Source: Candidatus Moraniibacteriota bacterium | GTDB taxonomy: Bacteria; Patescibacteriota; Minisyncoccia; Moranbacterales; UBA1568 | Assembly (NCBI GenBank): GCA_028711705.1 | Contig: JAQTRS010000001.1 | Location: 30,581-94,580 of the forward strand | Length of the DNA: 64,000 nucleotides | Reading direction: 5' to 3' | Shown: positions 1 to 18,933 of the stretch, one piece after another | Layout: each line of letters opens with the position of its first letter | Numbering within the stretch: the stretch's first letter is position 1 | Program-made: the position numbers and the translations under genes | The notes under the pieces: model-generated | What the model was told of the DNA's origin: nothing | What the model saw: only the letters and a program-made list of their open reading frames with translations | Databases searched by the model: none

Positions 1-670
1 GCTCCACAAAGGAAACAAAGAAGCGGAAGCCCGTCTTAAAAACGGCACCCTGACTGGTAAGGATGCTTTCGAGCTTTTCACGACCTATGGATTCCCCTTG
101 GAAATGACGCAGGAAATCGCCATCGAGAACGGAGTGGATGTGAATATCGTCGAATTCGAAAAGGAATTCAAGAATCATCAGGACCTTTCCCGTGCCGGAA
201 GCGCCGGAAAATTCAAGGGAGGATTGGCGGATCACGGGGAGATGTCGGTGAAGTATCACACGACAACCCACTTGCTTCAGCAGGCCCTGCGCCAAGTCTT
301 GGGCGATCATGTGGCTCAGAAGGGAAGCAACATCACCGCCGAGCGTTTGCGTTTCGACTTCTCGCACCCGAGCAAAATGACGGAGGAGGAAATCAAACGG
401 ACGGAAAGTATCGTGAATGAGAAAATCAAAGAAGCGCTGCCAGTGAGTTATCAGGATATCCCATTGGAAGAAGCGAAGAAGCTCGGGGCGATCGGACTTT
501 TCGGCGAGAAGTATGGCGAGACCGTGCGGGTGTATAAAGTCGGCGACTTCAGCCTCGAATTCTGCGGGGGGCCACACGTGACCAATACTTCGGAGCTTGG
601 AACGTTTAAGATTACGAAGGAAGAGGCTTCGTCGGCCGGGGTGCGACGGATCAAGGCGGTGCTGGAATAA
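1..670 (+). CDS. alaS: Alanyl-tRNA synthetase, C-terminal portion (5'-partial). It ends shortly after the editing-domain CGGPHV motif with no C-Ala domain.
   Basis: The frame entering the window translates LHKGNKEAEARLKNGTLTGKDAFELFTTYGFPLEMTQEIA, continuing to HTTTHLLQQALRQVLG and EFCGGPHV. These are classic AlaRS editing-domain motifs. Confidence 0.85.
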   Translation, partial: LHKGNKEAEARLKNGTLTGKDAFELFTTYGFPLEMTQEIAIENGVDVNIVEFEKEFKNHQDLSRAGSAGKFKGGLADHGEMSVKYHTTTHLLQQALRQVLGDHVAQKGSNITAERLRFDFSHPSKMTEEEIKRTESIVNEKIKEALPVSYQDIPLEEAKKLGAIGLFGEKYGETVRVYKVGDFSLEFCGGPHVTNTSELGTFKITKEEASSAGVRRIKAVLE

Positions 671-724
671 ATAGCAAGCTTGTAAGGAATTTTTACAAGT
701 TCGAGGCTATCATTTTGTAAAAAA

Positions 725-834
725 GCAACTGTTTCCAAAATAGAAACAGTTGCAAGAGAAATAGTAGTGTGCGCAGATTTTGCACACACTGCCAATATAT
801 GGAGAGTCAACTGTTGCAAAATTTGCAACAGTTG
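725..834. repeat. Cluster of three near-perfect palindromes in an AT-rich spacer. Two share a CAACTGTT core: GCAACTGTTTC-N7-GAAACAGTTGC at 725-753, and CAACTGTTGCAAA-a-TTTGCAACAGTTG at 808-834. The third is an imperfect GTGTGCGCA/TGCACACAC pair at 767-789.
   Basis: Inverted repeats read directly from the sequence between the alaS stop and the ygjP-like start. Confidence 0.6.
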
Positions 835-933
835 AAAAATTAGTTACTATAACCGATTTTAAAATATATTGATGAAAAAGCAATATATAAAAAGTGCATA
901 TTGCATATTTCAATAAACTAGGTGCTTTGTCTC

Positions 934-1494
934 ATGAAAAAAGAAATCAAAACACATAGCGGAACCATCCCGTACACGATGAAATCGGTGCGGTGGTCCA
1001 AGTCGGTGCGGCTTATCGTGCATGGCGATGGGTCGCTCGTTTTGACGAAGCCGTTGTGGGTGAGCGTCAAAAGAGCGGAAGGCTTTCTTTCGGATAAGAT
1101 TGAGTGGATTATCGAGAAGGTGCGGCAGGCGAAAGAGAATCATCCGGCTCATTTGGCACGCCAGGGGACCAAGGAGGAATATGCGAGGCTCAAGAAGCAG
1201 GCGCTCCAATTCGTGACCGAGCGGGTACGTAGTATCAACCAGGCGCATTATGGGTTCGACTATGCCAAAGTTTCGGTGCGGAATCAGAAGACGAGATGGG
1301 GGAGTTGCTCCAAGGATGGCAATCTGAGCTTCAATTACCGCATCGTCCTCCTCCCGCCTCACTGCGCGGATTACCTCATCGCCCACGAACTCTGCCACCT
1401 CAAGCAATTCAACCACTCGGACAAGTTCTGGAATCTCGTATCCAAGGCCTGCCCCGATCACCGAAAGGTGAGAAGGGAGATGCGGGGGTTGTAG
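934..1494 (+). CDS. YgjP-like zinc metallopeptidase (DUF45/WLM, M48 family), a gene type commonly found inside type I RM loci.
   Basis: HELCHL zinc-binding motif in the C-terminal half. Size ~186 aa. Lies directly upstream of hsdM. An alternative GTG start is at 922. Confidence 0.7.
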   Translation: MKKEIKTHSGTIPYTMKSVRWSKSVRLIVHGDGSLVLTKPLWVSVKRAEGFLSDKIEWIIEKVRQAKENHPAHLARQGTKEEYARLKKQALQFVTERVRSINQAHYGFDYAKVSVRNQKTRWGSCSKDGNLSFNYRIVLLPPHCADYLIAHELCHLKQFNHSDKFWNLVSKACPDHRKVRREMRGL

Positions 1495-1657
1495 ATCAAT
1501 TTTTTTTACCTTACATAAAGAGAATTCCTGATAGAGTATCTATTTGGGAATTTTTTTATCAAACTACAAAGAAAATATAAAAAATGCGGGATTTACCCCT
1601 TGTAAAGCCAAGAATTTAGGAGTAGACTAAAGAAAATCAGTAAATTTCCATTCTGCT

Positions 1658-3202
1658 ATGGCAAAAAACAATACTCAGAAATCAGAATCGTTTGAAAAGA
1701 TACTTTTCAGATCGGCGGATAAGTTGAGAAAGAATATGGATGCAGCCGAGTATAAGCATATTGTACTTGGTCTTATTTTTCTCAAATATATCTCTGATTC
1801 TTTTGAGGAGTTGTACGAAAAAATAAAGTTGGGAGAAGGGGATTTTGCAGGAGCAAATCCTGAGGATGCGGACGAGTATCGCGCGGAGAATGTTTTCTTT
1901 GTTCCGCAGATTGCGCGATGGACATTTCTTCATACAAGAGCAAAGCAACCGACTATTGGCAAGGATCTTGATAATGCGATGGAAGCTATTGAAAAAGAAA
2001 ATCCAACACTCAAAGGAATTCTTCCGAAAGTATATGCTAGACCAAACCTTGATAAAACTGCACTTGGTGGACTTATCGACCTTGTGGGAAATATCGCCAT
2101 TGGAACAGAAGCAGCAAAAAGCAAAGATTTACTCGGAAGAGTATATGAGTATTTCCTCGGAGAATTTGCTAATGCCGAAGGAAAGAAGGGTGGCCAATTC
2201 TACACGCCAAAATCAATTGTTCGATTGATGGTAGAAATGGTCGAACCACACAATGGCCGAGTATATGATCCTGCCTGCGGAAGCGGCGGGATGTTTATTA
2301 TGAGTGAGAAATTTGTTCAAAGTCATCAGGGAAGAGTGGATGATATTTCCATCTATGGTCAAGAATCCAATCAGACAACATATCGTCTTTGTCGGATGAA
2401 TCTTGCTATCCGTGGTATTGATGGATCGCAAGTAAGATGGAATACTGAAGGATCCTTTCTTAACGATGTTCACAAAGACCTTAAAGCAGACTATATCCTT
2501 GCGAACCCCCCTTTTAACGATAGCGATTGGTCAGGACAGCTCCTTGTTAATGATCCTCGCTGGCAATATGGTACTCCACCAGCTGGCAACGCCAATTTTG
2601 CATGGCTTCAGCATATGTTGTATCATCTTTCTCCAAAAGGTGTGATGGCATGCGTACTTGCAAACGGATCACTTTCAAGTCAGACAAGCGGGGAAGGCGA
2701 AATTCGAAAATCACTTATCGAGCATGATGTTGTGGATTGTATCGTCGCACTTCCAAAGCAGCTTTTCTACAATACCGGTATCCCAGCGTGTATTTGGTTT
2801 CTTTCTCGAAAGCGTACGGGTAATGGCGATCGAAAGCGGACTGGAGAAATACTTTTTATCGACGCAAGCGAAGTTGGATATATGGCCGATCGCACTCACA
2901 AAGAATTTAGTGAGGATGATATGGCTATGATTGCCAATACGTATCACGAGTGGCGCAAAGAGGATGGGAAATATGAAGATAAAAAAGGTTTCTGTAAATC
3001 CGCTACGTTGGAAGAAATAGTCAAACATAATTTTGTCCTTACACCGGGGCGCTATGTGGGTATTCCAGATGAGATAGATGACGGAATCCCATTTGAAACC
3101 AAAATTTCCGCCCTTACCGCAACTCTCAAAAACCAGATGACACAGGAGGAAAAGTTGAATGCAGAGATACGAAAGCAGCTAGGGAAAATTAACATATTCT
3201 GA
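1658..3202 (+). CDS. hsdM: Type I restriction-modification system methyltransferase subunit HsdM (N6-adenine)
   Basis: N-terminal HsdM_N-like [25 protein letters not shown]. AdoMet motif DPACGSGG. Catalytic NPPFN motif. Confidence 0.92.
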
Positions 3203-3322
3203 TACCCCCCAACAAGAAATCATCACGGATAGTGCTTTAAATGAGCCATATTTACGACTATTTACATCTCTTGTATAGTATAGTATACTAGAAACATACA
3301 TTTGTAGATAAGTATACTCTCT

Positions 3323-4747
3323 ATGAACCAAGAACTCATTCATTATCTTCAACAGCAACTTCGAACAACTGATGAACGGTTGAAACGCTTTACGCATAGT
3401 TCAGATGGAAAAAAACATCCGAGCCGTTTTATGTTTGTGAAATTGAAACAATACATCGATGATTTTCTTGAAAAAAAATCCGAAAATAAAATGATTATCA
3501 TTCCAGGATTTCGAGGTGTTGGTAAAACGACATTGACAGCTCAAATGTGCGAGCACTACCAACGTCGCATAAAACACACCCTCTTTATTTCGATTGAGGA
3601 TGCAAAGAATCTTTTTGATGTCGGTATTGCTGAGATTATGAATGCTTACGAAAGTATTCTTGGGAAGGATCTTGAAAGTATTGATTATCCAATCCTTATT
3701 TTCCTCGATGAAGTTCAAACTGATCCAAAGTGGGCAATTACACTTAAATCACTTTTCGAAAAAACGACAAATGTGTTTTTTTGCTGCACCGGTTCATCTG
3801 CAGTAACGCTTCAAACAACAAGCAATCTTGCTCGTCGAGCTGTTTTTGAACGGATGCCGCCTATGTGTTTCACTGAGTACGAAATGGTGAAGAATAATAT
3901 TTTTCCGATAACTAAATTGAAAGATTTTATTCGACAGGCAGTGTATTTTTCTCAGGATGCCGATGCAGTTTATGCAAGTCTCCTTCGTATTCAGCCATCG
4001 GTCAATCAGTATTGGTCGAAAGTAAATCGAAATGATATTCGTCCTTATTTGGCATACGGCGCCTTACCCTTTTCTCTTATAATGCCAAATGAAACGGTAG
4101 TCTATGAATCGATCTCGTTGCTTTTGGATAAGATTATCAAATCAGATCTTTCGACGATCGGTAATTTCGATATTGAGACATTGGGAGCGGTCAAGCGAAT
4201 TCTCTTTGCTATTGCTGAGAATGACACAACGAGCCTCAAAACTCTCGAAGATCGTTTTGGCCTGAGTCGTCTCACTATTGCTAATATCTTTGATGCTTTA
4301 GAGAAAGCGGAATTACTTATCAAAATCCCAGCTTACGGATCAAATATGACTATTGCTAAAAAGGCGAATAAATACCTCTTTATGGCCCCGGCTATCCGAA
4401 TGTCTTTCTTTTATCTTACTGGTCTTGAGAGCACTTACCTTGTCAGGCAAGGAAAACTGCTTGAGGATTCTGTTGGCTCGCATCTCTATCGAGAATTTAT
4501 TCTCAGGGGCCAGGGCGCTATTCGTTATGATAGCGCTCAAGGGGGAGCAGATTTCATATTGCAGATTCAAAATAATCGACAAATCATCATTGAAGTTGGA
4601 ATGGGAAAGAAGGATAGAAAGCAAGTTGCTAACAGTGCGAAGAAAATCAATGCCGTTTACAATATTGTTTTTTCAGAATCAGAACTCAGGATTGATCATG
4701 ATTTGAAAACAGTATTTGTACCGTTAGATTATTATTTTTTGATGTAA
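3323..4747 (+). CDS. AAA+ ATPase of the AAA_14/DUF4143 (COG1373-like) type, nested between hsdM and hsdS.
   Basis: Walker A PGFRGVGKTT. Walker B ILIFLDEVQ. ~470 aa architecture typical of the AAA+DUF4143 family. Confidence 0.65.
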   Translation: MNQELIHYLQQQLRTTDERLKRFTHSSDGKKHPSRFMFVKLKQYIDDFLEKKSENKMIIIPGFRGVGKTTLTAQMCEHYQRRIKHTLFISIEDAKNLFDVGIAEIMNAYESILGKDLESIDYPILIFLDEVQTDPKWAITLKSLFEKTTNVFFCCTGSSAVTLQTTSNLARRAVFERMPPMCFTEYEMVKNNIFPITKLKDFIRQAVYFSQDADAVYASLLRIQPSVNQYWSKVNRNDIRPYLAYGALPFSLIMPNETVVYESISLLLDKIIKSDLSTIGNFDIETLGAVKRILFAIAENDTTSLKTLEDRFGLSRLTIANIFDALEKAELLIKIPAYGSNMTIAKKANKYLFMAPAIRMSFFYLTGLESTYLVRQGKLLEDSVGSHLYREFILRGQGAIRYDSAQGGADFILQIQNNRQIIIEVGMGKKDRKQVANSAKKINAVYNIVFSESELRIDHDLKTVFVPLDYYFLM

Positions 4748-4780
4748 GGAAAGAATTTTTAGTTTTTATGATTTTTTATT

Positions 4781-5311
4781 ATGGGACCGAAAGATATAAG
4801 AAAGAAAATTTTAGAGATGTTGTATTCTCAGAGATCAGGGTTTATGGTAAAAACTGATGATTTAATAAATAGCTTTAAACCTAAACTTGATGACCCAATT
4901 TTGCATCAAGAAATAGAGTATCTTAAAGGAAAGGGTTTTCTTGAGACCCAAGCTGAATTCATGGGGAGAGAGTATCTTTATTTTGCTGGCTTAAAAATTA
5001 CTCCTATTGGAATTGATCTTGTTGAAAATCCAGAAGAATTTGGAAAATTATTTAACGTACATATAAATAATTTTGGAAATATCTCACAAAGCAACGTTGT
5101 AGCTAGCTCTTCCAATATTAATCAAAGTATAAATGTTCAAACCAATGATATCTCTCCTGAAATTTTAGAATTGTTACAGCAGTTAAAAAAAGCGATTGAG
5201 GATGGCGACATTGAGAAGAAGGATTCTCTGCTACAGAAGCTGAGGAGCGGTGCTGAAAATGTATTTTGGAACCTCGTAGCAAGTGGTATTTATACGGTGA
5301 TTCAAAAATAA
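4781..5311 (+). CDS. Hypothetical protein with a probable N-terminal winged-helix DNA-binding domain, nested in the RM locus.
   Basis: The ORF starts 34 nt after the ATPase stop. The N-terminal KKILEMLYSQRSGFMVKTDDLINSF...EIEYLKGKGFLET resembles PadR/wHTH folds. The C-terminal half is Asn/Ser-rich and helical. Confidence 0.45.
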   Translation: MGPKDIRKKILEMLYSQRSGFMVKTDDLINSFKPKLDDPILHQEIEYLKGKGFLETQAEFMGREYLYFAGLKITPIGIDLVENPEEFGKLFNVHINNFGNISQSNVVASSSNINQSINVQTNDISPEILELLQQLKKAIEDGDIEKKDSLLQKLRSGAENVFWNLVASGIYTVIQK

Positions 5312-5331
5312 AGTGGGGTAAATTTACACAT

Positions 5332-5745
5332 ATGTTAAAAGTAAAGTACAAAGAAAGGCCAACGAAGGAGGCTATAGAAGGATATTGCAGAATGATTGAG
5401 GGTCTTTTGTCCGTTCATAAGTTGAAATTAGAAGTTGATATCTGGGATGGTCCTATGATTATCAAATCATATCAGGGCAATCAACATATAGAGGATGCAT
5501 ATGTTTGGATACGAGGTATTGCTGTTAAGATGCCTGGAAGGAAAGTTTTTTCTATATATCCAGCGCCAAGAGGCGGATTAGATGAAACCGTTTCAGATAA
5601 GGAAATATGGGATGATGCCTATATTATTCAAGATGAAATTTATCAGAAGTTGAATAGATTTTCTTATGTAGGAAATATGTCTGATCCATATTGGGAATTA
5701 TGGGATAACCTCCCCAAGGCGGTTAAGAAATTGAAAGGGGAATAA
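5332..5745 (+). CDS. Hypothetical protein (~137 aa), nested in the RM locus.
   Basis: ORF with an ATG 21 nt after the upstream stop, same strand, very AT-rich. No recognisable motif. Confidence 0.4.
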   Translation: MLKVKYKERPTKEAIEGYCRMIEGLLSVHKLKLEVDIWDGPMIIKSYQGNQHIEDAYVWIRGIAVKMPGRKVFSIYPAPRGGLDETVSDKEIWDDAYIIQDEIYQKLNRFSYVGNMSDPYWELWDNLPKAVKKLKGE

Positions 5746-5761
5746 ATTTTACAAGAAAGTT

Positions 5762-6406
5762 ATGTTTTCTAGCGAGATATTTGAGGTAATAAATCATGGG
5801 AGCGAAGAGGTAAACATCGAGTATAAAGATTCGATGGATTGGTCTTTGGATGAAACGAGATGGAAAATTATTCAGGCTGTTTTAGCGATGTCTAACACAA
5901 AAGATGGCGGATACATCGTTATTGGTGTAGAGGAAAGAGAAAAAGTTTTTTATGCAAAGGGTATGTCTGAGGAGTATTTTAAATCATTTAATCATGACCA
6001 TCTCTCAAATGTGTTAAGCGAATACTGTGATCCAAATATTCAGTTTCGCGTATTGTCAGATGTAGCGGAAATAGATGATGAGAAAAGGCTATTTATTGTG
6101 ATTGAGGTCTCGGAATCAATGCAACCTGTCATATGTAAAAAATTAGCACTACGGAGCAAAAAAGAAAAAGCGTTTCCAGAAAATATTGCATTAAGGAAAA
6201 ATGCTATTTACATACGTTCAAAAACACCTATTGAATCTCGCGAAATCGCATCAGCACATGAATGGCGCGAATTTATCGAGCGAATTGTTGAGAAAAATCG
6301 TGCAGAATTGATCAAAAGAATGCCTTGTTCCAGGTTTAAGTCAGAGATCTTAGTATCTGACAGTGATAAATTTAATAAGGATCAGGAAAGAGATAAGATT
6401 ATATAA
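5762..6406 (+). CDS. AlbA_2 / Schlafen-like putative DNA-binding domain protein, nested in the RM locus.
   Basis: EYKDSMDWSLDETRWKIIQAVLAMSNTKDGGYIVIGVEE matches the AlbA_2 (divergent Schlafen core) signature E.K...AfaNt.GG.l.iGV. Confidence 0.5.
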   Translation: MFSSEIFEVINHGSEEVNIEYKDSMDWSLDETRWKIIQAVLAMSNTKDGGYIVIGVEEREKVFYAKGMSEEYFKSFNHDHLSNVLSEYCDPNIQFRVLSDVAEIDDEKRLFIVIEVSESMQPVICKKLALRSKKEKAFPENIALRKNAIYIRSKTPIESREIASAHEWREFIERIVEKNRAELIKRMPCSRFKSEILVSDSDKFNKDQERDKII

Positions 6407-6411
6407 AACAT

Positions 6412-7146
6412 ATGTCAGATACTGATAAATTGTTGGCTAAGATTAAGTCACGCGGCCATTGGAAGGTGGTTATACGACCAACCGAGTATTCGGAGAATCT
6501 TATTCCATCCTTAGAAGATTGCAAAAGATTAATAGAGGAGAGTAGTGTTAGTCTAAGAGGGTGGGATTACCCTTATATTGATAGACATGGTAATGTGGGA
6601 AATGCAAGTGCAAATAGTGTTCATTCAATGTGTGATTGGGATGACATGTCATTTTTTGAATACTGGAGATTCTATAAAACGGGACAATTTGTTCATTATT
6701 TTTCAATGAGGGAAGATTGGGAAATTGATGAAAATAAAAAAGTAGAAATTCAAAGAAACCTTCGTACGAAATCCGATAAGTTTCTTGGTATTCTATCGAC
6801 ACTTTATTCAATAACGGAAATTTTTGAGTTCGGTTCGAGATTGTTTACAAAGTTAGAGCTTGTCAAGGGTGTTGAAATTATAATTGAATTACATGGAGTT
6901 AATGGAAGAACCTTATTTTTCTGGGATTCTTTCATGCGTATTCTCTATAAGGATTACACGTGCGTATATACTGATGACCTGGCTAAAATTTCACTGACAA
7001 TACCGCGAGAGGATTTAATAAGAAATTCGACAGACCTTGCGCTCCGAGAGTCAATTAAACTTTTCAGAGAAGCTTTCAATTGGAGTGGGGCTAACGAAGG
7101 TATTTTCAGGGAAGATCAGAAAAAGCTATTGGAACGTCGTTTGTAA
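6412..7146 (+). CDS. Hypothetical protein (244 aa), nested in the RM locus. It is possibly the functional partner of the preceding AlbA_2 protein.
   Basis: ORF starts 6 nt after the AlbA_2 gene stop. Trp/Phe-rich. No recognisable motif. Confidence 0.45.
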   Translation: MSDTDKLLAKIKSRGHWKVVIRPTEYSENLIPSLEDCKRLIEESSVSLRGWDYPYIDRHGNVGNASANSVHSMCDWDDMSFFEYWRFYKTGQFVHYFSMREDWEIDENKKVEIQRNLRTKSDKFLGILSTLYSITEIFEFGSRLFTKLELVKGVEIIIELHGVNGRTLFFWDSFMRILYKDYTCVYTDDLAKISLTIPREDLIRNSTDLALRESIKLFREAFNWSGANEGIFREDQKKLLERRL

Positions 7147-7169
7147 TTGAAAGTAAAATATTTCTCAGT

Positions 7170-8408
7170 ATGAAAAATTGGAAAGAAACAACTTTAGGAG
7201 AGGTGACTGATCTTATTATTGACCATAGGGGACTGACTCCAAAAAAGATTGGAGGAGATTGGTCTGATATTGGGTATCGGGCGATTTCTGCAAAGTCTAT
7301 TAAAAATGGTCAGCTTGTAAATGAGGAACAAATGAATATTCTTCCGGAAAACCTCTATAAAAAGTGGATGAAGGAGGAAATTCAATACGGCGATATTTTT
7401 CTGACTTCTGAGGCACCTCTGGGTGAACATATCGTTTGGAAGTCTGAGGAGAAGTTGGTATTGAGTCAAAGAATTTTTGGCATAAGAACCAAGAAAGAAA
7501 AACTTGATCCGTTTTTCTTTAATTATTTTATCGATAGCAAATTTTACCAACACGAACTAAAGAGCAAGGAATCCGGGTCTACTGTTACGGGCATAAAACA
7601 ATCGGAATTATTAAAGACTAGGGTTATTCTTCCACCTCTCGAAGAGCAGAAAGAAATTGCGGGGGTTTTGGGGAGTTTGGATGATAAGATCGAGCTTTTG
7701 CGAGAGGAGAACAAAACCTTGGAAGCAACCGCACAGACCATTTTCAAAGAATGGTTCGTCAATTTCAATTTCCCAAATATTGAAGGAAAACCCTACAAAT
7801 CATCCGGCGGAAAAATGATCAACTCCGAACTCGGCTTGATCCCAGATGGGTGGAGAGTTGGGAGACTATCAGAGATTGCGAATTTCCTGAATGGCTTGGC
7901 ATTACAGAAGTTTCCGCCAGAGAGTACCACTGAGTATTTACCTGTTATTAAAATTAAAGAACTGAATTCTGGAATTTCTAACCAAACCGATAAAGCAAGC
8001 GCGAAACTGGATAAGAAATATATTGTTGAGGATGGAGATATCTTATTTTCATGGTCAGGGAGCCTCATCGTAGATATTTGGAAATACGGAAGAGGGGCAT
8101 TGAATCAGCATTTGTTTAAGGTAGCATCTGACCAGTACCCAAAGTGGTTTTATTTATATTGGACGAAAGAGCATTTGGCGAACTTTCAGCAAATAGCAAC
8201 TGCAAAGGCCGTTACAATGGGGCATATTCAGAGACATCATTTGGATGATGCGCTTGTCACGATACCAATTGAAGAGTTTATGAAGATATCAGATGATGTA
8301 TTTGCACCGATGCTTGAAAAAATTATCAATAATAATTCTGAGATCCAGACTCTCTCAACTCTTCGCGATACTCTTTTACCAAAGTTGATGAGTGTTAATA
8401 ATAAGTAA
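7170..8408 (+). CDS. hsdS: Type I restriction-modification system specificity subunit HsdS (two target-recognition domains)
   Basis: Conserved central and C-terminal HsdS helices (LPPLEEQKEIAGVLGSLDDKIELLREENKTLEATAQTIFKEWF and LSTLRDTLLPKLMSV). ~410 aa. Confidence 0.88.
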   Translation: MKNWKETTLGEVTDLIIDHRGLTPKKIGGDWSDIGYRAISAKSIKNGQLVNEEQMNILPENLYKKWMKEEIQYGDIFLTSEAPLGEHIVWKSEEKLVLSQRIFGIRTKKEKLDPFFFNYFIDSKFYQHELKSKESGSTVTGIKQSELLKTRVILPPLEEQKEIAGVLGSLDDKIELLREENKTLEATAQTIFKEWFVNFNFPNIEGKPYKSSGGKMINSELGLIPDGWRVGRLSEIANFLNGLALQKFPPESTTEYLPVIKIKELNSGISNQTDKASAKLDKKYIVEDGDILFSWSGSLIVDIWKYGRGALNQHLFKVASDQYPKWFYLYWTKEHLANFQQIATAKAVTMGHIQRHHLDDALVTIPIEEFMKISDDVFAPMLEKIINNNSEIQTLSTLRDTLLPKLMSVNNK

Positions 8409-8415
8409 TTTATGT

Positions 8416-9393
8416 ATGGTGACAAGGCAACGAAAACTGGGATCAGTAAAAAATGAATTGATTCGAAAATCTATTGAGTCAATGCTTTCTGCTGTTCAAA
8501 TATTTAATAATCCCAGTATCCAATTTAAATCTGAATCTTTTATAGTTCTCTCTGTGATTGCATGGACATACCTCTTACATGCTCACTACAGAGAACAAAA
8601 AATCGAATACCGGTATTTTGAACAGAAAGGGAAGAGAAGAAAGTTTGATACAACGAAGAATGGAGCATATAAATATTGGGAACTTGAAAGATGTTTAAAT
8701 GATATTAAATCACCTATAGACAAAGTTACATCAAATAATTTAAAGTTTTTGATTGGGTTAAGACATGAGATAGAACATCAAATGACAACTAAAATTGATG
8801 ATTTATTGAGTGCTAGATTTCAAGCATGTTGTTTGAATTATAATAGTTACCTAAAGAAATTATTTCCAAAACAGGATGGGATTGAAAAGTATTTGTCTTT
8901 TAGTCTTCAGTTCTCATCTTTGAATGAAAAACAGATTGACCAATTGGTTGATTATGAAGATTTACCCCAAAACATTTCAATTTATATACAACAATTTGAT
9001 CAAGAACTACCGGATGAAGAATTTAATGATAGCAGATTTTCTTATAGGGTTTTATTTGTACCGAAAACAGCAAACAGAAAAGGTCAGGCGGACAAGGTTA
9101 TTGAATTTATTCCAGCTGATTCAGAAGTTGCCAAGGGAATGAATAAAGAATATGTATTAGTGAAAGAGAAAGAGAAAATGAAATATTCACCTAGTGAAAT
9201 TTGGAAGAAAATACAAAAAGACGGTTTTAAAAAATTTGGCGCATACCAACACACTCAACTGTGGCGGACTGAAAACGCAAAAGACCCCTCAAAGGGATTT
9301 GGTACTTTCGTTGTAAAAACTTGGTATTGGTATGATTCCTGGCTTGATTTTGTAAAAAAACATTGTGAGGAGAATAAATCAGAATATACCTAG
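8416..9393 (+). CDS. Hypothetical protein carrying an R-x4-H (RHEIEH) motif, a possible HEPN/Abi-like domain, nested between hsdS and hsdR.
   Basis: ATG at 8416 (MVTRQRK) overlaps the hsdS stop region. The motif GLRHEIEHQ is flanked by predicted helices. Confidence 0.5.
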   Translation: MVTRQRKLGSVKNELIRKSIESMLSAVQIFNNPSIQFKSESFIVLSVIAWTYLLHAHYREQKIEYRYFEQKGKRRKFDTTKNGAYKYWELERCLNDIKSPIDKVTSNNLKFLIGLRHEIEHQMTTKIDDLLSARFQACCLNYNSYLKKLFPKQDGIEKYLSFSLQFSSLNEKQIDQLVDYEDLPQNISIYIQQFDQELPDEEFNDSRFSYRVLFVPKTANRKGQADKVIEFIPADSEVAKGMNKEYVLVKEKEKMKYSPSEIWKKIQKDGFKKFGAYQHTQLWRTENAKDPSKGFGTFVVKTWYWYDSWLDFVKKHCEENKSEYT

Positions 9394-9436
9394 TTTTATG
9401 TGAATGAATACTCGCTCTAAGGATTGATATTAACGG

Positions 9437-10426
9437 ATGATTTTTATGAATGAAAATAGAGAATTTATAGGATATCTTAAGTATTCTGGAAAGTCTGTAG
9501 AGGGTGGATTTTTGGATGCTAGAAAATCTGCAGAAGCTCTACTTGGTTTTGATGAGGTGTTGCGATATTTTATTTCAGTAGGAAATCCAGATTTTAGAAA
9601 TGTTAATTATGAAATACCGGTAAGGGTTAAGAAGGGGTCATGGGGTATTTGGATTCCAATTGGAATAGCTCTCACTCAGTATTTAAACACGATTGCAAAA
9701 AAAGCTGGATCAGATGGTTTTTTTGAGACAGGACCATCAAAGGATATAGAGAAGATGTTTCGAGGTGCAGTTATTGCTGCACAATGGGTAATGAGAATTG
9801 GGATACATGTTGGCGACTTTGCAAAGAAAGAATTCGAGAAAACCGTGAGGATAAAACAAGTAGGTGATGATATAATTATTGGTGTACCAAATGCTGAAGG
9901 TAAAATATTGGATGTGCCAAAAAAATACTTTGATATATATGTTAAATGTCCCGAGAAGCTTTTTTCAAAGAATGCAAACCTTATAGAACAAGATCGGTAT
10001 TTAGAGATGGGCGTGTTTCAAAATAGTGAGGAAGAAAAGGTCCTCGTAACTGAAAAAGAGAAGAATATTTTTTATAAAAAAGATGATTCTGATAAGGATA
10101 TTTTGTTCCCGGAATTAGAACATGGTCAATTTGTTGAATTAGATGGCGAAATTACTAGAGCAACAGAGAGTACAAATACAATTGGATTTAGGTATAAAGA
10201 TCATACCTTGGTTTGTACTCCAGATAAAGATATAGCGATAGCGATATTCAAAAATAAAATGATTTCACAACAAAAGGAACATTTATTCCCCAGAGTAAAA
10301 ATTCGAGGCATTGTATCTAGAGTAGATAAAGATGGTTTCTTTAAAGAGAGAAGGCCCCAAATCATATTTTATGATATTGAATCGTTGGAGGTGGAAGCAA
10401 ATAATCGAAAGATGACACTTTTTTAA
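9437..10426 (+). CDS. Hypothetical protein (~326 aa), nested between hsdS and hsdR.
   Basis: ORF on the operon strand, AT-rich. An alternative start is at 9446. It ends 10 nt before hsdR. Confidence 0.45.
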   Translation: MIFMNENREFIGYLKYSGKSVEGGFLDARKSAEALLGFDEVLRYFISVGNPDFRNVNYEIPVRVKKGSWGIWIPIGIALTQYLNTIAKKAGSDGFFETGPSKDIEKMFRGAVIAAQWVMRIGIHVGDFAKKEFEKTVRIKQVGDDIIIGVPNAEGKILDVPKKYFDIYVKCPEKLFSKNANLIEQDRYLEMGVFQNSEEEKVLVTEKEKNIFYKKDDSDKDILFPELEHGQFVELDGEITRATESTNTIGFRYKDHTLVCTPDKDIAIAIFKNKMISQQKEHLFPRVKIRGIVSRVDKDGFFKERRPQIIFYDIESLEVEANNRKMTLF

Positions 10427-10435
10427 AGTTAAATT

Positions 10436-13400
10436 ATGACCAAAATATTTGAATCAACCATTGAGGAATTTGTAATCGAACTCTTGCAGAATCAAGGGTT
10501 TGAGTATCTATCACCCGAGGATCAAGAGAATGAACGGCCTGATCTGGGTGAAGTGGTATTGAAAGATCGTTTGAAGCGTGCCATCGATGCTATCAATTCG
10601 GGAATTCCGGAGGAAGCCAAGGAACAGGCTTTGAAGTTAGCTCTGAATCTTCCAAGTCAGAATTTGATGGATAATAATGAGATTTTCCATCGGATGCTTA
10701 CGGAAGGAATCGAGGTGGAAGTGATGGGTGTAGATGGTGTGAAAGGTGAGAAGGTTTGGCTTATAGATTTCTTGCATCCTGAGAATAATGAATTCCTTGT
10801 TTGTAATCAGTATACGGTTATTGAAAATGGAGTGAATAAAAGGCCGGATGTTGTGGTATTGGTGAATGGCTTGCCTTTGGTGGTGATAGAACTCAAGAAT
10901 CCTGCAGATGAAAATGCAACAGTGCAAAAAGCATTTACGCAGCTGCAGAATTACAAGAATGCTATTCCGAGCTTGTTTGGATATAATGCGCTTCTGGTGG
11001 CGTCGGACGGATTGGATGCGAAGGTCGGGACGATTTCTTCGGATATGTCGCGTTTTTTGGCGTGGAAGTCTCGTGATGGAGTGAAGGAGGATAGTGTAAC
11101 TGTTCCGCAAATTGAAACATTGGTGCGGGGTATGCTTGCTCAAGAAGTCTTGCTTGATTTGGTCAGGAATTTTATTGTCTTTGAGAAAGATAAAAAAGAA
11201 GATCCGGAAACGGGAATGATTTCAATAGTTACTATTAAGAAAATTGCAGCGTATCATCAATACTATGCAGTCAATAAAGCGATCACCTCGACAATGACTG
11301 CCTCGAGTGAAGAGGGGAATAGAAAAGCTGGTGTGGTATGGCATACGCAAGGATCCGGAAAATCGCTTTCGATGGTTTTCTATACTGGGAAAGTAGTATT
11401 GTCATTGAACAATCCTACGGTGGTAGTGATTACGGATCGAAATGATTTGGATGAGCAATTGTTTGATACATTTGCGAGTTGCGGACAGTTATTGCGACAA
11501 GATCCTGTGCAGGCAAAGAGTCGTGGTGAACTCAAAGATCTTTTGAGGGTTGCTGGCGGAGGGATTGTGTTTACGACGATTCAGAAGTTTTTTCCCGAGG
11601 ATGGATCGGCGGATTTTGATATGCTCTCGGAACGAAAAAATATTATCGTGGTTGCTGATGAAGCGCATCGTAGCCAATATGGATTTGGAGCAAAGACTCG
11701 TGAAAAAGATGGTGAAGTATCTACGAAATATGGATTTGCGAAGTATTTGCGCGACGCTTTGCCTCATGCGTCGTTTATAGGGTTTACGGGGACGCCGATT
11801 GAAAAGGAGGATGCTTCGACACCGGCAGTGTTTGGAAATTATGTGGATGTGTATGATATCGCGCAAGCGGTAGAGGATGGCGCGACGGTGCGCATATACT
11901 ATGAATCACGACTTGCTAAAGTGCATCTTGATGATGAGGAGAAGGCGCGATTGGATGAGGAGGTTTCTTCTATTACAGAAGGGGAAGAAAGTACGGCTGC
12001 CGAAAGAGCGAAAGCGAAGTGGGCACAGCTTGAAGCTATTGTCGGTCATCGGGATCGGTTGAAGGTTATCGCTTCGGATATCGTAGATCATTTTGAAAAG
12101 CGACAAGCAGTGATGGAGGGAAAAGGGATGATCGTTTGTATGAGTCGAAGAATTGCTGTTGAGCTTTATGAAGAGATTGTAAAGATTCGTCCGGATTGGC
12201 ATGATAGTGATTTGAAGAAAGGTGCGATAAAAGTAGTGATGACTTCGTCTTCTTCGGATCCTGAGAATTGGCAACCACATCATACAAGTAAGCAGGCACG
12301 TAAAGCGCTTGGTGATCGACTTAAGGATACGAATGATACTTTGAAGTTGGTGATCGTGCGGGATATGTGGCTTACGGGGTTTGATGCGCCGTGTTTGCAT
12401 ACGATGTATGTCGACAAGCCAATGCGTGGACATAATCTTATGCAGGCGATTGCCCGGGTGAATCGGGTGTTTAAGGATAAGTCTGGTGGTTTGATCGTGG
12501 ATTATATCGGTATTGCCTCAGATCTGAAGTCTGCTCTCGCAACATATACTGCAAGCGGTGGAAAAGGTGCGCCAACACTTGACCAGGAAGAAGCAGTCGC
12601 CGCTTTGCTTGAGAAGTTTGAAATCGTCGAGCAGATGTTCCATGGCTTTGATTATAGGCGATTCTTTTCTGTGGATACGAGAGAGAAATTGACATTAATT
12701 CTTGAAGCTCAGGAGTATGTATTTGGTTTGGATGATGGAAAGAATCGATTTACACGTCAGGTAGGATTGCTCTCGCAAGCCTTTGCTCTGTCGGTGCCGA
12801 ATCTGAAAGCTATGGCAATAAAAGATGAGGTAGGATTTTTTCAGGCAGTGAAGGCTCGTCTGACAAAATTTGAATCAATCGGAACAGGAAAATCGGATCT
12901 TGAAATTGAGACGGCTATTCGACAAATAGTTGATCGTGCTGTGGTATCGGAAGGCGTGATTGATGTGTTTGATGCTGCAGGAATTAAGAAACCGGATATT
13001 TCTATATTGTCGGATGAATTTTTGGAAGAGGTAAAGCATATGGAGCGGAAGAATCTTGCACTGGAGCTTTTGAAAAAGTTGTTGAATGATGAGATCAAGA
13101 TGCGGACGAGAAAGAATTTCATCCAGAGTAGGAAATTGTCCGAGATGCTTGAAAATGCTATCAAGAAATACCAGAACAATCTTTTGACAACAGCGCAGGT
13201 AATTGAAGAATTGATTGGATTGGCAAAGGAAATTCGTGAAGGTGATAAACGAGGAGAAGAACTTGATTTGAGTGAGGACGAGTTAGCGTTCTATGATGCT
13301 TTGGCAAATAATGACAGCGCCCGTGGTATTTTGGGAGACAAACAATTAGCAGTAATTGCAGTTGAGGTTTTCCGAAGCGTGAAAGGTAATGCAACAATAG

Positions 13401-13552
13401 ACTGGAACCTCAAAGAAACAGTACGTGCTCGATTACGTCGGGATGTGAAACGTATTCTTAATCGATATGGGTATCCACCAGATGAACAGTTAGTTGCGAC
13501 AGAGAATGTCTTGAAACAGGCTGAGTTGATGGCGAGTGAATTAGGGGAGTAA
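10436..13552 (+). CDS. hsdR: Type I restriction enzyme endonuclease/translocase subunit HsdR
   Basis: 1038 aa. The N-terminus [24 protein letters not shown] is typical of HsdR. A nuclease motif ([15 protein letters not shown]) is followed by SF2 helicase motifs (GSGKS..., DEAHRSQ). Confidence 0.92.
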
Positions 13553-13859
13553 TTTTTTAAAATATAGGAAGATTAAAATAATGCGTACTTGATAAGGATG
13601 AATGATTTGAATGAAAATGCGTAGAAGCTATATATTCACGCCACAATACCCGTATAACCCTATCAAAACGATTGCAGAAATAAACCCCCTGAAACCCGTT
13701 GACTTTCCCTTGCAGGCATGCTTCAATAGACGTGTTGTTTGCGTCGCGGTTTTTGCGGATCCAGGTCTTGCAGAGACGGGCAACAACCCATCGGCGCCCC
13801 ATAGGTGATGGGGTTCAAAGAATGATTCAGGTGGCTTTTGAATGGCGAGGAGTAGGAAG

Positions 13860-14174
13860 ATGAATAGGCTCGAAGTGGGTAGGGTGATTTCCTTTGATTC
13901 GGCAAAAGGAAAAAGATTCGGGTATCTCCAGCTGGAGAATGGGGAGAAAATGTGGTTTCATGAGGGTGATCACACCGCTCTTGTGACGGTAGATAAAGGG
14001 AGGCATCGTTTTGTGAAGCGGGTCGTCTGCCCGAAACCGATACGGCAGGGGGATGAAATCTGGTTTGTTCGAGGTTTCGGAAGCTCGGGCAAGGAAAGGG
14101 CGAGGTGTTGGTGTTACAGGAAGCGATCCAGACATACGGATTGCCGAACAAGACAAAAACCTACCGTCCATTGA
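13860..14174 (+). CDS. Hypothetical small protein with a cold-shock-domain-like N-terminus and a basic Cys-containing tail.
   Basis: GRVISFDSAKGKRFGYLQLENGEKMWFHEGD resembles the CSD pattern G.V.wF...KGfGFI...G.dvFvH. The alternative start at 13842 adds a basic leader. Confidence 0.3.
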   Translation: MNRLEVGRVISFDSAKGKRFGYLQLENGEKMWFHEGDHTALVTVDKGRHRFVKRVVCPKPIRQGDEIWFVRGFGSSGKERARCWCYRKRSRHTDCRTRQKPTVH

Positions 14175-14313
14175 AGAATATACGGCATGATTGGGAATAA
14201 CATTTTCCCATAGCCAAACAAGGTTTGCCAAGCATGCGTGCGTGGCAGACCTTTTGATTTTTATGAGGCAATCGATAATCCGTATGGCGAAGTTAGTTTT
14301 GAGCTGATATACT

Positions 14314-15024
14314 GTGAGTATGAGGCTTACGTTAAAAGAACAACGTGTCGCTGATGAAGCGAGGCAGTGGGTTAGATCTCATCAGTTGAATATTATCGAT
14401 CATTTCGTCGGAAGTGTCGAGCCGGTGGAATTTCCCGTATCGATTTTTATGGCAGGGTCTCCTGGCGCTGGAAAAACGGAATTTTCGAAACGATTGATCA
14501 AAAGGTTGGGCGGGAATATCGTACGTATCGATGCGGATGATATCCGAGATATGCTGCCGCAGTATCAGGGAAAGAATTCCTATGTTGTCCATGGTGCCGC
14601 AGCTCTTGGCGTTGAGAAAGTGTACGATTTCGTATTGAAAAAGCGATTACACGCCCTGCTCGATGGAACATTTCAAAAATATGAAAAAGCTACCGATAAT
14701 ATACGCCGTTCTCTGAAGTATGAGAGGAGTATCGATATCTTCTACGTGTATCAGGATCCTTTGGTCGCATGGGATTTTACGCAGAAGCGTGAGGTGGTTG
14801 AAGGCAGGAATATTTTGAAAGGAGTGTTCGTTGATGCATTTTTCGCTTCTTATGAGAATGTGAAAAGGGTAAAATTGGAATATGACGAGGCAGTGCGTCT
14901 CAATGTGGTGTTCAAGGATATTTCGAATCACGATGAAGAGATATGGTATAATGTAGATATCGATCAGATTGACTCGTATGTAAAAATAGGGTACACTCGC
15001 ACAGAACTAGAAAAACGCTTATGA
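14314..15024 (+). CDS. Zeta-toxin family P-loop kinase (PezT/zeta-like)
   Basis: Walker A FMAGSPGAGKT is followed by RIDADDIRDMLPQY, the typical zeta_toxin layout. ~235 aa. Confidence 0.65.
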   Translation: MSMRLTLKEQRVADEARQWVRSHQLNIIDHFVGSVEPVEFPVSIFMAGSPGAGKTEFSKRLIKRLGGNIVRIDADDIRDMLPQYQGKNSYVVHGAAALGVEKVYDFVLKKRLHALLDGTFQKYEKATDNIRRSLKYERSIDIFYVYQDPLVAWDFTQKREVVEGRNILKGVFVDAFFASYENVKRVKLEYDEAVRLNVVFKDISNHDEEIWYNVDIDQIDSYVKIGYTRTELEKRL

Positions 15025-15209
15025 GAAGCATTTTGAATATTTTCAAGAAGAAAGAACAGAAAGTCGATCGGGTATCGGAGTTTTTTCGACATACTTCGAA
15101 AGAGGAAAAGGTGCGGGTGCTGCGCGAGGTAGCCAAAGAGGCGAGCGATGATCAACGCAGGCTTTTGCGGGAGTATGATAAAAGGCTTGGAACGATGCGC
15201 GCCCGATAA
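15021..15209 (+). CDS. Small helical hypothetical protein (62 aa) whose start overlaps the zeta-like gene stop in ATGA. It is a candidate antitoxin-like partner.
   Basis: ATG at 15021 overlaps TGA 15022-15024. The protein is charged and helical (RVLREVAKEASDDQRRLLREYDKRL). Confidence 0.35.
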   Translation: MRSILNIFKKKEQKVDRVSEFFRHTSKEEKVRVLREVAKEASDDQRRLLREYDKRLGTMRAR

Positions 15210-15292
15210 GGTTTGTTTCGAGCGAAAAGATGCTTGGGATAGCGATTATGGCATAATGAAACGCCATATGACTGTGTTTTATGTGCTTTTCA

Positions 15293-15321
15293 TTGACAAT
15301 CGGCGCAAAAAAGGATAAGAT
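15293..15321 (+). promoter_or_regulatory. Sigma-70-like promoter for rplU (TTGACA-N17-TAAGAT)
   Basis: TTGACA at 15293-15298. A 17-nt spacer. TAAGAT at 15316-15321, about 35 nt upstream of the rplU start. Confidence 0.4.
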
Positions 15322-15356
15322 AAGTCTATTACTAAATTTTTGAGGAAAAAACCGTT

Positions 15357-15668
15357 ATGTTGGCTATTATTAAGACTGGTGGAAAGCAATACAAGGTTGC
15401 TGAAGGGGATATCTTGAAGGTTGAGAAATTGGAAGGCGAAGTCGGGGAGACGCTGACTTTTTCCGAAGTGCTTTTCACGGGCGATGACAAGGCTGTGGCT
15501 GTCGGGATGCCTCTTTTGGACGGCGTGACCGTTGAATCCAAGATTCTCAAGCAGGATCGCTCGAAGAAGGTGTGGGGCATCAAGCACAAGCCGAAGAAGC
15601 GCGAAAAGACCAAGTTCGGTCATCGCCAGCCGTATACCGAAGTCGAAATCACCAAGATCAACGCGTAA
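15357..15668 (+). CDS. rplU: 50S ribosomal protein L21
   Basis: MLAIIKTGGKQYKVAEGDILKVEKL is a canonical L21 N-terminus. 103 aa. Confidence 0.92.
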   Translation: MLAIIKTGGKQYKVAEGDILKVEKLEGEVGETLTFSEVLFTGDDKAVAVGMPLLDGVTVESKILKQDRSKKVWGIKHKPKKREKTKFGHRQPYTEVEITKINA

Positions 15669-15689
15669 TCGTTGGGATGGGACTTGAAA

Positions 15690-15717
15690 AAAACAGGGCA
15701 AGTGCCCTGTTTTTTTG
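15690..15717 (+). terminator. Rho-independent terminator after rplU
   Basis: Hairpin CAGGGCA-agt-GCCCTG followed by TTTTTTT. Confidence 0.6.
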
Positions 15718-15726
15718 CGGCCGCAA

Positions 15727-15755
15727 TTGACCGGAAGCGGTTTGTGTGCGATGCT
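15727..15755 (+). promoter_or_regulatory. Promoter of paralog-array unit 1 (TTGACC-N17-GATGCT)
   Basis: The same architecture recurs before each array unit: 16527-16555, 17313-17341 and 18115-18143. Confidence 0.4.
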
Positions 15756-15805
15756 TGGCAGCGTAGGGGCGCACCGTTTCGGTTGCGCGAAGGAAAGTTC
15801 TTTGT

Positions 15806-16465
15806 ATGGGGGTAGGTGTGATGAAAGGAAAAGTGGTGGCATTGGTGCCGGTGAAAGAGGGGAAGCTGTGGGCGGAGATGTTTGAGAATCCGGAGCAGCT
15901 GACGGTGGAAGATATTTTGGGGGTGACTTTCGATCAGAATAGGGATCTGGGCCACCTGCTGAGTTATCTGGATTTCAAGCCGGAGTTCTCCGGAATCCTA
16001 AGAGAGGTGGTTGAGGAATTCCTTGAAACGATGGTGAGGGACCTGTTGCCGGAAGCGATACTCTCGAGCGCATCGTTTGCACGATTGATGTCGGGAGATA
16101 TACGGAGGCTGTATGATCATGATGGCGGGGAGATTGTCCGTGACAGTCTGTATAGGTTTTTCAAAAGACTTGATGATGCCGGTACCGATATCGGCAAGCA
16201 GCCGGCATGCATGGACGACTGCCCATTTCTGGAGTTTGCGATAGTCGCGCATATAGAGTTCGGTCTGGAGGCGTATTCCGAAGCGTTCGGCGCAGGCTGT
16301 CTGGCTCTCAATGAGAATGATGTCGCGTCTTTTCCGCCTGATTCGGGTGAGAATGACCAAAAGCAGCTCGCCTCTCTTATATGCATAATGATGAGCGCTA
16401 CCGAGATCTTGCTCAAGAAGGCGGTCGATATGAAAAAGAAAGCTTCCGAAGCCTTCCCAGTGTAG
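15806..16465 (+). CDS. Paralog-array protein 1 (acidic hypothetical, ~215 aa)
   Basis: Shares the KVVALVPV...WAEMFENPE.LTV.D.L and PEFSGILREV.EEFLE....LPEAI blocks with the next two ORFs. An alternative start is at 15821. Confidence 0.6.
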   Translation: MGVGVMKGKVVALVPVKEGKLWAEMFENPEQLTVEDILGVTFDQNRDLGHLLSYLDFKPEFSGILREVVEEFLETMVRDLLPEAILSSASFARLMSGDIRRLYDHDGGEIVRDSLYRFFKRLDDAGTDIGKQPACMDDCPFLEFAIVAHIEFGLEAYSEAFGAGCLALNENDVASFPPDSGENDQKQLASLICIMMSATEILLKKAVDMKKKASEAFPV

Positions 16466-16484
16466 TTGAAATGGCTGAAATAGC

Positions 16485-16520
16485 GGCTGGCAATCGAAAC
16501 GATTGCCAGCCCATTTTTTT
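16485..16520 (+). terminator. Rho-independent terminator of array unit 1 (GCTGGCAATCG-aaa-CGATTGCCAGC + T-run)
   Basis: Perfect hairpin and an 8-T run. Homologous hairpins lie at 17271-17300 and 18075-18104. Confidence 0.6.
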
Positions 16521-16624
16521 TGCCCGATTGACAGGGAGCGGTTTTTGTGCGATGCTGATCAGGCGCGTGGCGCGCGAGCCTTTCTGGCCGCGCATAAGTT
16601 GGTTCTTTTTATGAGGTAGGTGTG

Positions 16625-17257: not shown

Positions 17258-17270
17258 TTGAAATGAAGGA

Positions 17271-17300
17271 CTGGCAGCTGATAATCGCTGCCAGTTTTTT
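17271..17300 (+). terminator. Rho-independent terminator of array unit 2 (CTGGCAGC-tgataatc-GCTGCCAG + TTTTTT)
   Basis: Hairpin read from the sequence. Confidence 0.55.
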
Positions 17301-17390
17301 ACATCCCTCGCCTTGACTTTTCATTGCTATTGCGTAATGCTGTATGGCGTAGGGGCGCACTTTCTGAGTCGCGCAGGAACAGTTCTTTGT

Positions 17391-18053: not shown

Positions 18054-18074
18054 CCGAAGAAGTTGAAATGGTGG

Positions 18075-18104
18075 CTGGCAATCATAATGGTTGCCAGTTT
18101 TTTG
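18075..18104 (+). terminator. Rho-independent terminator of array unit 3 (CTGGCAATC-ataatgg-TTGCCAG + TTTTTT)
   Basis: Hairpin read from the sequence. Confidence 0.55.
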
Positions 18105-18924: not shown

Positions 18925-18933
18925 AAAGCGGCG

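Follow-up and report, generated by a model that had tools for sequence, protein, structure and literature searches.

When foreign genes lie between the subunit genes of a restriction–modification (RM) system, do they form one functional machine with the RM subunits, or is the RM system a host to independent passengers? This question is raised by positions 934–13552 of a 64,000-nucleotide (nt) stretch of DNA, hereafter the window, from a metagenome-assembled genome (MAG) of Candidatus Moranbacteria (Patescibacteria, of the candidate phyla radiation, CPR). The initial annotation placed eleven genes here on the + strand, in the order YgjP-like, HsdM, five genes, HsdS, two genes and HsdR, and read them as a single type I RM operon with two embedded accessory modules. 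We confirmed the order, the coordinates and the common strand of these genes, and an identical 16-kb Logan contig, called independently, agrees with this layout; in the source MAG, the locus tags PHT88_00180, PHT88_00190 and PHT88_00205 are found on a 323-kb contig. The locus contains a complete and apparently intact type I RM set, interrupted at two places by foreign genes. These genes do occupy two sites, as the annotation had it, but they correspond to about six independent units rather than to two functional modules. We therefore favour, with a probability of about 0.75, a chromosomal, intact type IC-like RM system in which about six autonomous cargo units of defence type are embedded, at the hsdM/hsdS and hsdS/hsdR junctions.

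The RM subunits and their relatives

The three RM subunits are full length relative to their homologs (coverage of 0.99–1.0 in many loci). HsdM (1658–3202; 514 amino acids, aa) is a separate gamma-class N6-adenine methyltransferase (N6_Mtase PF02384, E = 8e-113; PF12161) with intact CGSG (residues 207–210) and NPPF (283–286) motifs. HsdS (7170–8408; 412 aa) has two target-recognition domains (TRDs), the Methylase_S family PF01420 being matched in two stretches (E = 2e-30), and it shares 72% identity, from end to end, with the HsdS of a related locus (L022). HsdR (10436–13552; 1038 aa) combines a PD-(D/E)XK nuclease (D138...E152-x-K154) with a superfamily 2 (SF2) translocase, in which the Walker A (GSGKS, 306–310) and DEAH (408–411) motifs are intact, and its domains are HSDR_N, SWI2_SNF2, T1R_D3-like and T1RH-like_C (PF04313, PF18766, PF22679 and PF11867, E = 2e-134). 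This set of subunits is that of a type I RM system, and the enzyme would methylate host DNA and cut unmodified invading DNA.

A scan with HsdR, restricted to one genome per species, yielded 80 related loci (51–86% identity), which span many phyla, with Patescibacteria heavily represented. The order M..S..R was kept in all 49 of the loci holding the three genes. In these 49 loci, the identity of HsdM to its counterpart in the window correlated with that of HsdR (r = 0.86), and because the two identities co-vary, the subunits can be considered cognate parts of one system. The identity of HsdS was far more variable (24–72%), as expected for shuffled TRDs. The HsdR relatives with the highest identities (76–86%) were scattered over MAGs assigned to very different phyla, and this scatter must therefore be due to horizontal transfer or to mis-binning.

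Among the enzymes of solved structure, EcoR124I/II, of type IC, provided the best match to HsdR (PDB 2w00 and 7bst; E = 1e-39, residues 6–489), and for HsdM, the M subunit of EcoR124 (E = 5e-39) was a stronger match than that of EcoKI (E = 3e-18). However, only the N-terminal half of HsdR aligns with EcoR124I, its C-terminal domain falls into the HindI-type PF11867 family, and HsdM is far closer to 3khk, its closest solved structure (E = 1e-145), than to EcoR124 M. From these sequence comparisons, we refer to the system as type IC-like, and do not claim membership of the family.

Cargo exchange at the subunit junctions

In the loci with all three subunit genes, the gap between hsdS and hsdR was of at least 600 nt in 43/49 cases and that between hsdM and hsdS in 26/49, both gaps being shorter than 400 nt in only four loci; these sizes are inflated where the HsdS match is partial (coverage of 0.5–0.8 in several loci), and some of the 600–1000-nt "gaps" may be unaligned TRD. 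The gaps of the 49 loci contain 150 open reading frames (ORFs) of at least 70 aa, 135 of which are co-directional with the RM genes, and the clustering of these ORFs together with the window's own proteins left 100 singletons. Searches of 145 gap proteins against Pfam and PADLOC identified DUF1016/YhcG, Fic/SoFic, AbiLi/AAA_21, RloB, Abi_C, PIN_12, RhuM, GmrSD, Shedu SduA_C, Mrr, DUF3800 and several PDC candidates of PADLOC. The gap cargo of the related loci is thus diverse and enriched in defence families. By iterative search, the cargo of the window resembled none of these gap ORFs, with the exception of a clear AlbA_2 protein in one locus (L030) and a marginal one in another (L077, E = 1.3e-4). 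No relatives of the embedded ATPase, g176, g244, DUF3644 protein or g326 were found in the 80 loci, the iterative search included, and a homolog of g137 was present in one of them (L024), elsewhere in the locus and not as gap cargo.

The exchange of cargo can be followed at the DNA level in one syntenic locus, L002 (CAZUWR010000001.1), which has a YgjP ortholog upstream and rplU (bL21) downstream and an HsdM 93% identical to that of the window. The DNA identity between the two loci is 85% in rplU and 77–85% in hsdM, the 5' half of hsdS and hsdR. From upstream to downstream, similarity extends over the YgjP-like gene (71%), is interrupted by an unrelated AT-rich spacer, and resumes at 1593, 65 nt before the ATG of hsdM, to continue at 83% up to 3180. 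It is then absent as far as 7155, 15 nt before hsdS, and the first half of hsdS (7155–7863) is again 83% identical. The segment corresponding to TRD2 (7863–8319) is unrelated, similarity returns from 8319 to 8397, and, after a second interval without similarity, it reappears at 10421, 15 nt before hsdR, and continues at 77–82% to the hsdR stop codon. The breaks in similarity fall within ~20 nt of the ends of the subunit genes, and the cargo of L002 is entirely different: a RhuM/Fic gene between the YgjP ortholog and hsdM, an AAA_21/AbiLi gene, RloB and a 152-aa ORF between hsdM and hsdS, and ORFs of 189 aa and 324 aa between hsdS and hsdR. Whole sets of cargo genes have therefore been swapped between the two loci, at precise junctions. 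GC content also differs between the components of the locus, at 0.32–0.38 for the cargo and 0.42–0.43 for hsdM and hsdR, against 0.51 for the rest of the window, which represents the host.

The MAG containing L002 is labelled "uncultured Bdellovibrionales", despite its synteny and 85% rplU DNA identity with the Moranbacteria window. Because of this identity in rplU, L002 probably comes from a close relative, and its label or binning is doubtful.

The embedded genes and their possible roles

According to the reading that we favour, the two junctions serve as exchange points for foreign genes. The hsdM/hsdS junction now holds an ATPase-nuclease of the PDC-S01 type, g176, g137 and a split Schlafen pair, and the hsdS/hsdR junction an RNase-type DUF3644 protein of the HEPN class (PDC-S19) and the OB-fold protein g326. 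These genes would be transcribed with the RM unit or from promoters inside it, and would act as an autonomous second line of defence, relying mostly on RNase or abortive-infection mechanisms, should restriction be evaded; embedding would provide co-inheritance and co-expression rather than physical coupling. The independence of the units is indicated by the company that their homologs keep: g244 is always found with a short AlbA_2 gene and, elsewhere, outside RM loci, g326 occurs without DUF3644, and g137 without g176. Four of the seven cargo genes bear nuclease or NTPase domains typical of defence, with intact motifs, and two of them, those for the ATPase and the DUF3644 protein, match single-gene PADLOC candidates.

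The PDC and HEC candidates in PADLOC were drawn from genes lodged within type I RM, BREX, DISARM and Hma loci ("guilt by embedding"), and more than 50% of the embedded genes in the RefSeq genomes searched had no clear function (Payne et al., bioRxiv 10.1101/2024.01.29.577857). The locus described here resembles that set in having foreign co-directional genes between type I RM subunits, in the matches of two cargo genes to PDC-S01 and PDC-S19, and in the presence of DUF3644, the HEPN domain of the validated HEC-08. However, the DUF3644 protein matches PDC-S19, with no HEC-08 model among the listed PADLOC matches, the AlbA_2 and g244 pair, g176 and g137 match no PADLOC model, g326 matches only PDC-S42, and the host is a CPR bacterium. 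The names PDC-S01, PDC-S19 and PDC-S42 had no text match in the supplements of that study.

The DUF3644 gene (8416–9393; 325 aa) begins at ATG 8416, as indicated by both the PADLOC match and the independent gene call, and not at GTG 8392; the same gene call also refined the starts of g137 (5332) and g326 (9446). Its product matches PF12358 (E = 4e-58) and PDC-S19 (E = 5e-165), and has an Rx4H motif (RHEIEH) at residues 116–121. DUF3644 has been classed as a HEPN domain found in R-M operons (PMC3710099), and defence by HEC-08, a DUF3644 protein, depends on the histidine of the motif (bioRxiv 10.1101/2024.01.29.577857). The presence of this motif makes the protein a predicted RNase. A two-gene system consisting of DUF3644 and g326 was considered and rejected, as a DUF3644 gene was present in none of six other g326 contexts.

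The second gene at this junction, g326 (9446–10426; 326 aa), belongs to no Pfam family. It has 219 homologs, matches phrog_32975 (E = 5e-57) and, in PADLOC, only PDC-S42 (E = 0.002). In its AlphaFold2 (AF2) model (predicted local distance difference test, pLDDT, 84), the C-terminal ~100 aa match oligonucleotide/oligosaccharide-binding (OB) folds, namely those found in RPA, Stn1/Ten1 and AspRS (E ~1e-3, with a Foldseek probability of 1.0). In all six of the other contexts read, the g326 homolog lies inside or directly after an RM system: in the hsdS/hsdR gap of a type I system (L089), after a Type ISP enzyme (L091), after an Eco57I/TaqI_C methylase in an SNF2-PLD system (L092), between a IIG-like methylase and a specificity subunit (L101), after an MmeI-like enzyme (L102) and after a C5-methylase with Eco29kI (L103). 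These systems represent at least five unrelated architectures (type I; Type ISP; IIG/MmeI-like; SNF2-PLD with an Eco57I-type methylase; type II C5-methylase with Eco29kI). Homologs with 33–34% identity were also found, in unannotated sequence, on two Vibrio replicons of 1.3–1.7 Mb from a plasmid collection. A phage origin of g326 was rejected, with no match in 50,697 phage records or in IMG/VR. This family is the most novel lead of the locus and a possible general RM companion. It may even stand for a class of accessory or "backup" factors that depend on RM and are as yet undescribed, sensing a restriction product or failure common to all RM types, but we put this forward tentatively and consider it doubtful; if true, the OB fold could bind single-stranded DNA or degraded DNA ends and then trigger or extend immunity.

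The position of these two genes raises the possibility of an integrated guard, in which one or both of their products would bind or monitor the RM complex and remain latent until a phage inhibits or evades it, the locus then being one functional machine rather than a host with passengers. The gene prrC lies between hsdS and hsdR, and PrrC is kept latent under EcoprrI, a type IC RM enzyme. PrrC, an anticodon nuclease of the HEPN class, is almost confined to embedded positions in type I RM systems, and the DUF3644 gene, also of the HEPN family and of RNase type, occupies the same place in an EcoR124I-like system. A second RNase-type gene, the Schlafen-like one, is also embedded here. For g326, the adjacency to RM genes in every context, often with overlapping or 5–15-nt junctions to the methyltransferase or specificity gene, and an OB fold suited to nucleic-acid sensing are likewise consistent with a guard. 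However, the DUF3644 protein lacks the ABC-ATPase domain of PrrC, and several unrelated cargo units are present here instead of one. Furthermore, a specific protein interface is unlikely, since g326 accompanies at least five unrelated RM architectures, and the RM system does not need DUF3644 or g326, since neither has relatives in its 80 closest RM relatives. Taken together, these observations make an integrated guard distinctly unlikely.

The embedding of such genes in RM loci has already been published (Payne 2024), with PrrC–EcoprrI as the classical case, and the locus is therefore a good example of this layout, not a new kind of system. It illustrates clearly how, in nature, type I RM operons serve as docking sites for exchangeable immune genes, and is distinctive in its CPR host, a bacterium with a small genome, the replacement of cassettes at two sites relative to the syntenic L002, a split Schlafen with an unclassified partner, and g326 as a companion independent of RM type. 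Its value lies in specific candidates rather than in a new principle, and three candidates for defence can be nominated: the AlbA_2 and g244 pair, the OB-fold protein g326 and the DUF3644 HEPN protein.

At the hsdM/hsdS junction, the AlbA_2 gene (5762–6406; 214 aa) and g244 (6412–7146; 244 aa) are separated by 5 nt. The first encodes a short Schlafen/AlbA_2 protein with the AlbA_2 domain only (PF04326, E = 3e-11) and an Ex4ExK motif (EEVNIEYK) at residues 15–22. The Ex4(E/D)xK motif is catalytic in the prokaryotic Schlafens (pSlfns), which are phage-activated tRNases, fused to sensor domains in 97.1% of cases, with TBP-like (TATA-binding protein-like) fusions accounting for 1.5% (Perez Taboada et al., Nat Microbiol 2026, PMC13056530). 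From its motif, the AlbA_2 protein is a predicted RNase effector. The family of g244 has 188 members other than the protein itself, and a Pfam domain was found in only one of them (P0120), in which g244 is fused to AlbA_2; in another (P0116), it is fused to an unrelated N-terminal domain. For five homologs, a short AlbA_2 gene (194–236 aa) was found directly upstream, usually with a 4-nt overlap, in eight further places. All of these places are outside RM loci, and a viral contig accounts for one. The AF2 model of g244 (pLDDT 96.7) consists of two beta-alpha-beta4-alpha repeats, a TBP-like topology. We therefore read the pair as a split pSlfn system, with AlbA_2 as the effector and g244 as a candidate sensor or regulator. 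It shares with pSlfns the motif, the topology of the partner and the existence of a fused version (P0120), but its effector and putative sensor are encoded by two genes, and the partner family has neither a Pfam model nor a significant PDB neighbour. As a smaller novelty, AlbA_2 and g244 possibly form a widespread split Schlafen system, with a TBP-like partner for which Foldseek found no neighbour among solved structures.

On the viral contig carrying this pair (L104, IMG/VR UViG_2630968783_000002), an SRAP-like gene is located upstream, and the next ORF (6122–7009; 295 aa) bears RHACVH, an Rx4H sequence; it may be another HEPN protein.

Three further genes are found at this junction. The ATPase (3323–4747; 474 aa) has the architecture AAA_14 plus DUF4143 (PF13173, E = 9e-24; PF13635, E = 7e-9), matches PDC-S01 (E = 1.5e-27) and has a Walker A motif (GFRGVGKT) at residues 62–69. 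DUF4143 has been catalogued as a PD-(D/E)XK family (PMC3424549), and in the protein studied here the signature is only partly recognizable (D410...E424-V-G). The next gene, g176 (4781–5311; 176 aa), belongs to no family; its N-terminal 80 aa weakly match phrog_3983 (E = 3e-5), and no relatives were found in the 80 loci, in viral contigs or in the PDB. Its identification as a bacterial gasdermin was rejected, as the match (E = 0.006; 16.4 bits versus a cut-off of 25) covers 66 residues of a low-complexity stretch and the protein has no hydrophobic or transmembrane segment. No convincing hydrophobic segment was found in any of the cargo proteins, so membrane localization is unsupported. The third gene, g137 (5332–5745), has no Pfam-type family assignment and belongs to a rare family of ~130-aa proteins, with 67 representatives among 1.84 billion proteins. 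The mechanical ORF, starting from TTG 5266, overlaps g176, and the called start is ATG 5332. Two proposals linking these genes were rejected: a single frameshifted gene, because the two are distinct in the gene calls and g137 constitutes a family by itself, and a conserved pair, because a g176-like neighbour was present in none of seven g137 contexts, the neighbours of which vary.

In a Wolfebacteria locus (L024, 746–2124), the g137 homolog comes after an antitoxin gene with a SocA/Panacea domain and an ORF of 174 aa, and in L094 it is preceded by the same ORF, of 141–174 aa in the two loci. The family may belong to a three-gene toxin–antitoxin-like cassette.

Alternatively, the cargo would have no immunity role and be made up of selfish or regulatory passengers (toxin–antitoxin-like addiction genes, mobile-element remnants, regulators) accumulating in a tolerated, frequently recombining locus. 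Neither g176 nor g137 has a recognizable defence domain, homologs of g137 are found beside a Panacea-type antitoxin pair (L024) and next to housekeeping genes (adjoining dnaK in L096), a zeta-toxin gene lies just downstream of hsdR, and the functions of more than half of the embedded genes were unclear in the survey of Payne et al. However, we saw neither a transposase or integrase nor repeat boundaries within the cargo, the cargo of the sister loci is dominated by known defence families, and the nuclease and NTPase domains of four of the seven cargo genes have kept their motifs. A cargo devoid of immune function is thus very improbable.

Several points nevertheless weigh against autonomous defence units in an active RM host, in addition to the inflation of gap sizes noted above. 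PDC-S01 and PDC-S19 are candidates rather than validated systems, and g176 and g137 have no link to defence beyond their position. All the g326 contexts are RM-adjacent, which is no less consistent with a functional reliance on RM than with autonomy. The predicted TBP-like nature of g244 is based on the order of its secondary-structure elements and on a non-significant Foldseek match, its top PDB neighbour being TBP 1mp9 (E = 0.012; template-modelling score 0.16–0.19). Finally, for the RM system as for each of the cargo genes, activity is a prediction from sequence.

Transcription, the YgjP-like gene and the flanks of the locus

The initial annotation also considered the eleven genes, including that for the YgjP-like peptidase, as a single operon, and such peptidases as known companions of type I systems. 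The intergenic gaps, in gene order, are of 163, 120, 33, 20, 16, 5, 23, 7, 52 and 9 nt; the junctions are therefore short at eight positions, as described, but not between YgjP and HsdM (163 nt) or between HsdM and the ATPase (120 nt). All the genes are on the same strand, with no convincing terminator between them. However, the + strand carries nearly every long ORF between 98 and ~40600, and the profiled part of the window (1–20000) has a positive GC skew along its whole length; given these flanks, the co-direction of the eleven genes is not in itself evidence of one transcript.

Consensus scans for promoters and terminators performed no better than on shuffled sequences, and the total of terminator-like matches in the region was not above that of the shuffles. 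In the 120-nt gap preceding the ATPase gene (3203–3322, + strand), the 8-bp palindrome AGTATACT is present at 3282–3289 and 3311–3318, its only two copies in 64 kb (0.21 expected). The second copy ends 4 nt before the ATG of the ATPase, and AGTATACT overlaps a promoter-like site at 3261–3289. This gap is probably the ATPase's own regulatory region, and the palindrome is a candidate operator/promoter brought in with the cargo. Together, the promoter-like site and the two palindrome copies speak for at least one start of transcription within the unit. Upstream of hsdM, the leader conserved in L002 (1593–1657, + strand) is a candidate promoter and ribosome-binding site region, and a terminator-like hairpin with a T-run (13729–13755, + strand), a consensus match only, is the candidate end of the unit, 177 nt past the hsdR stop. 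Two or three start sites (at ~1600 and ~3290) are more likely than a single 12.6-kb transcript, which is possible.

The YgjP-like protein (934–1494, starting at ATG 934; 186 aa; DUF45, PF01863, E = 3e-43) is a genuine HExxH zinc metallopeptidase, with HELCH at residues 151–155 and a weak match to proabylysin (4jiu). YgjP/DUF45 genes often adjoin type I RM genes, and the ortholog in L002, 73% identical, holds the same upstream position. Recurrent adjacency was not observed among the relatives of this RM system: when ORFs of 100 aa or more, lying within ~10 kb in the 80 loci, were searched iteratively, YgjP-like ORFs were identified in only three loci (L002, L057 and L080), downstream of hsdR in two of the three. 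We found nothing usable in the literature on YgjP/DUF45/COG1451 with type I RM systems. The GC content of the gene (0.54) is host-like, versus 0.32–0.43 for the RM genes and the cargo. In L002, the RhuM/Fic gene separates the YgjP ortholog from hsdM, and the spacer at this junction in the window is AT-rich, conservation with L002 restarting only within the last 65 nt. The claim of a real metallopeptidase thus stands, but the gene is most likely a neighbour and not a subunit, and we consider a single operon including the peptidase as a functional RM companion to be unlikely.

No tRNA or Rfam family was found anywhere in the 64-kb window, and positions 1–14000 had no megablast match in any complete E. 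coli genome. Downstream of hsdR (13842–15209) are an ORF of 110 aa, a zeta-toxin kinase gene (14314–15024; PF06414, E = 3e-35) and an ORF of 62 aa. L002 has a homolog of the first of these ORFs immediately ahead of rplU and lacks the zeta gene there; the latter and the 62-aa ORF in the window thus resemble a further insertion, and the 110-aa ORF is probably not the antitoxin. The gene rplU (bL21) is located at 15357–15668 (PF00829, E = 1e-35), and an antisense ORF over it (15279–15842) was rejected as spurious, because the mismatches with L002 accumulate at the third positions of the + frame codons (36 versus 18 and 12). Further downstream (19048–23057) are glycosyltransferase family 4 (GT4) genes and a Wzy_C O-antigen-ligase-like gene, and for two of the GT4 proteins there is an additional match to the "GT4-conflict" family of Pfam (E ~1e-9 to 1e-8).

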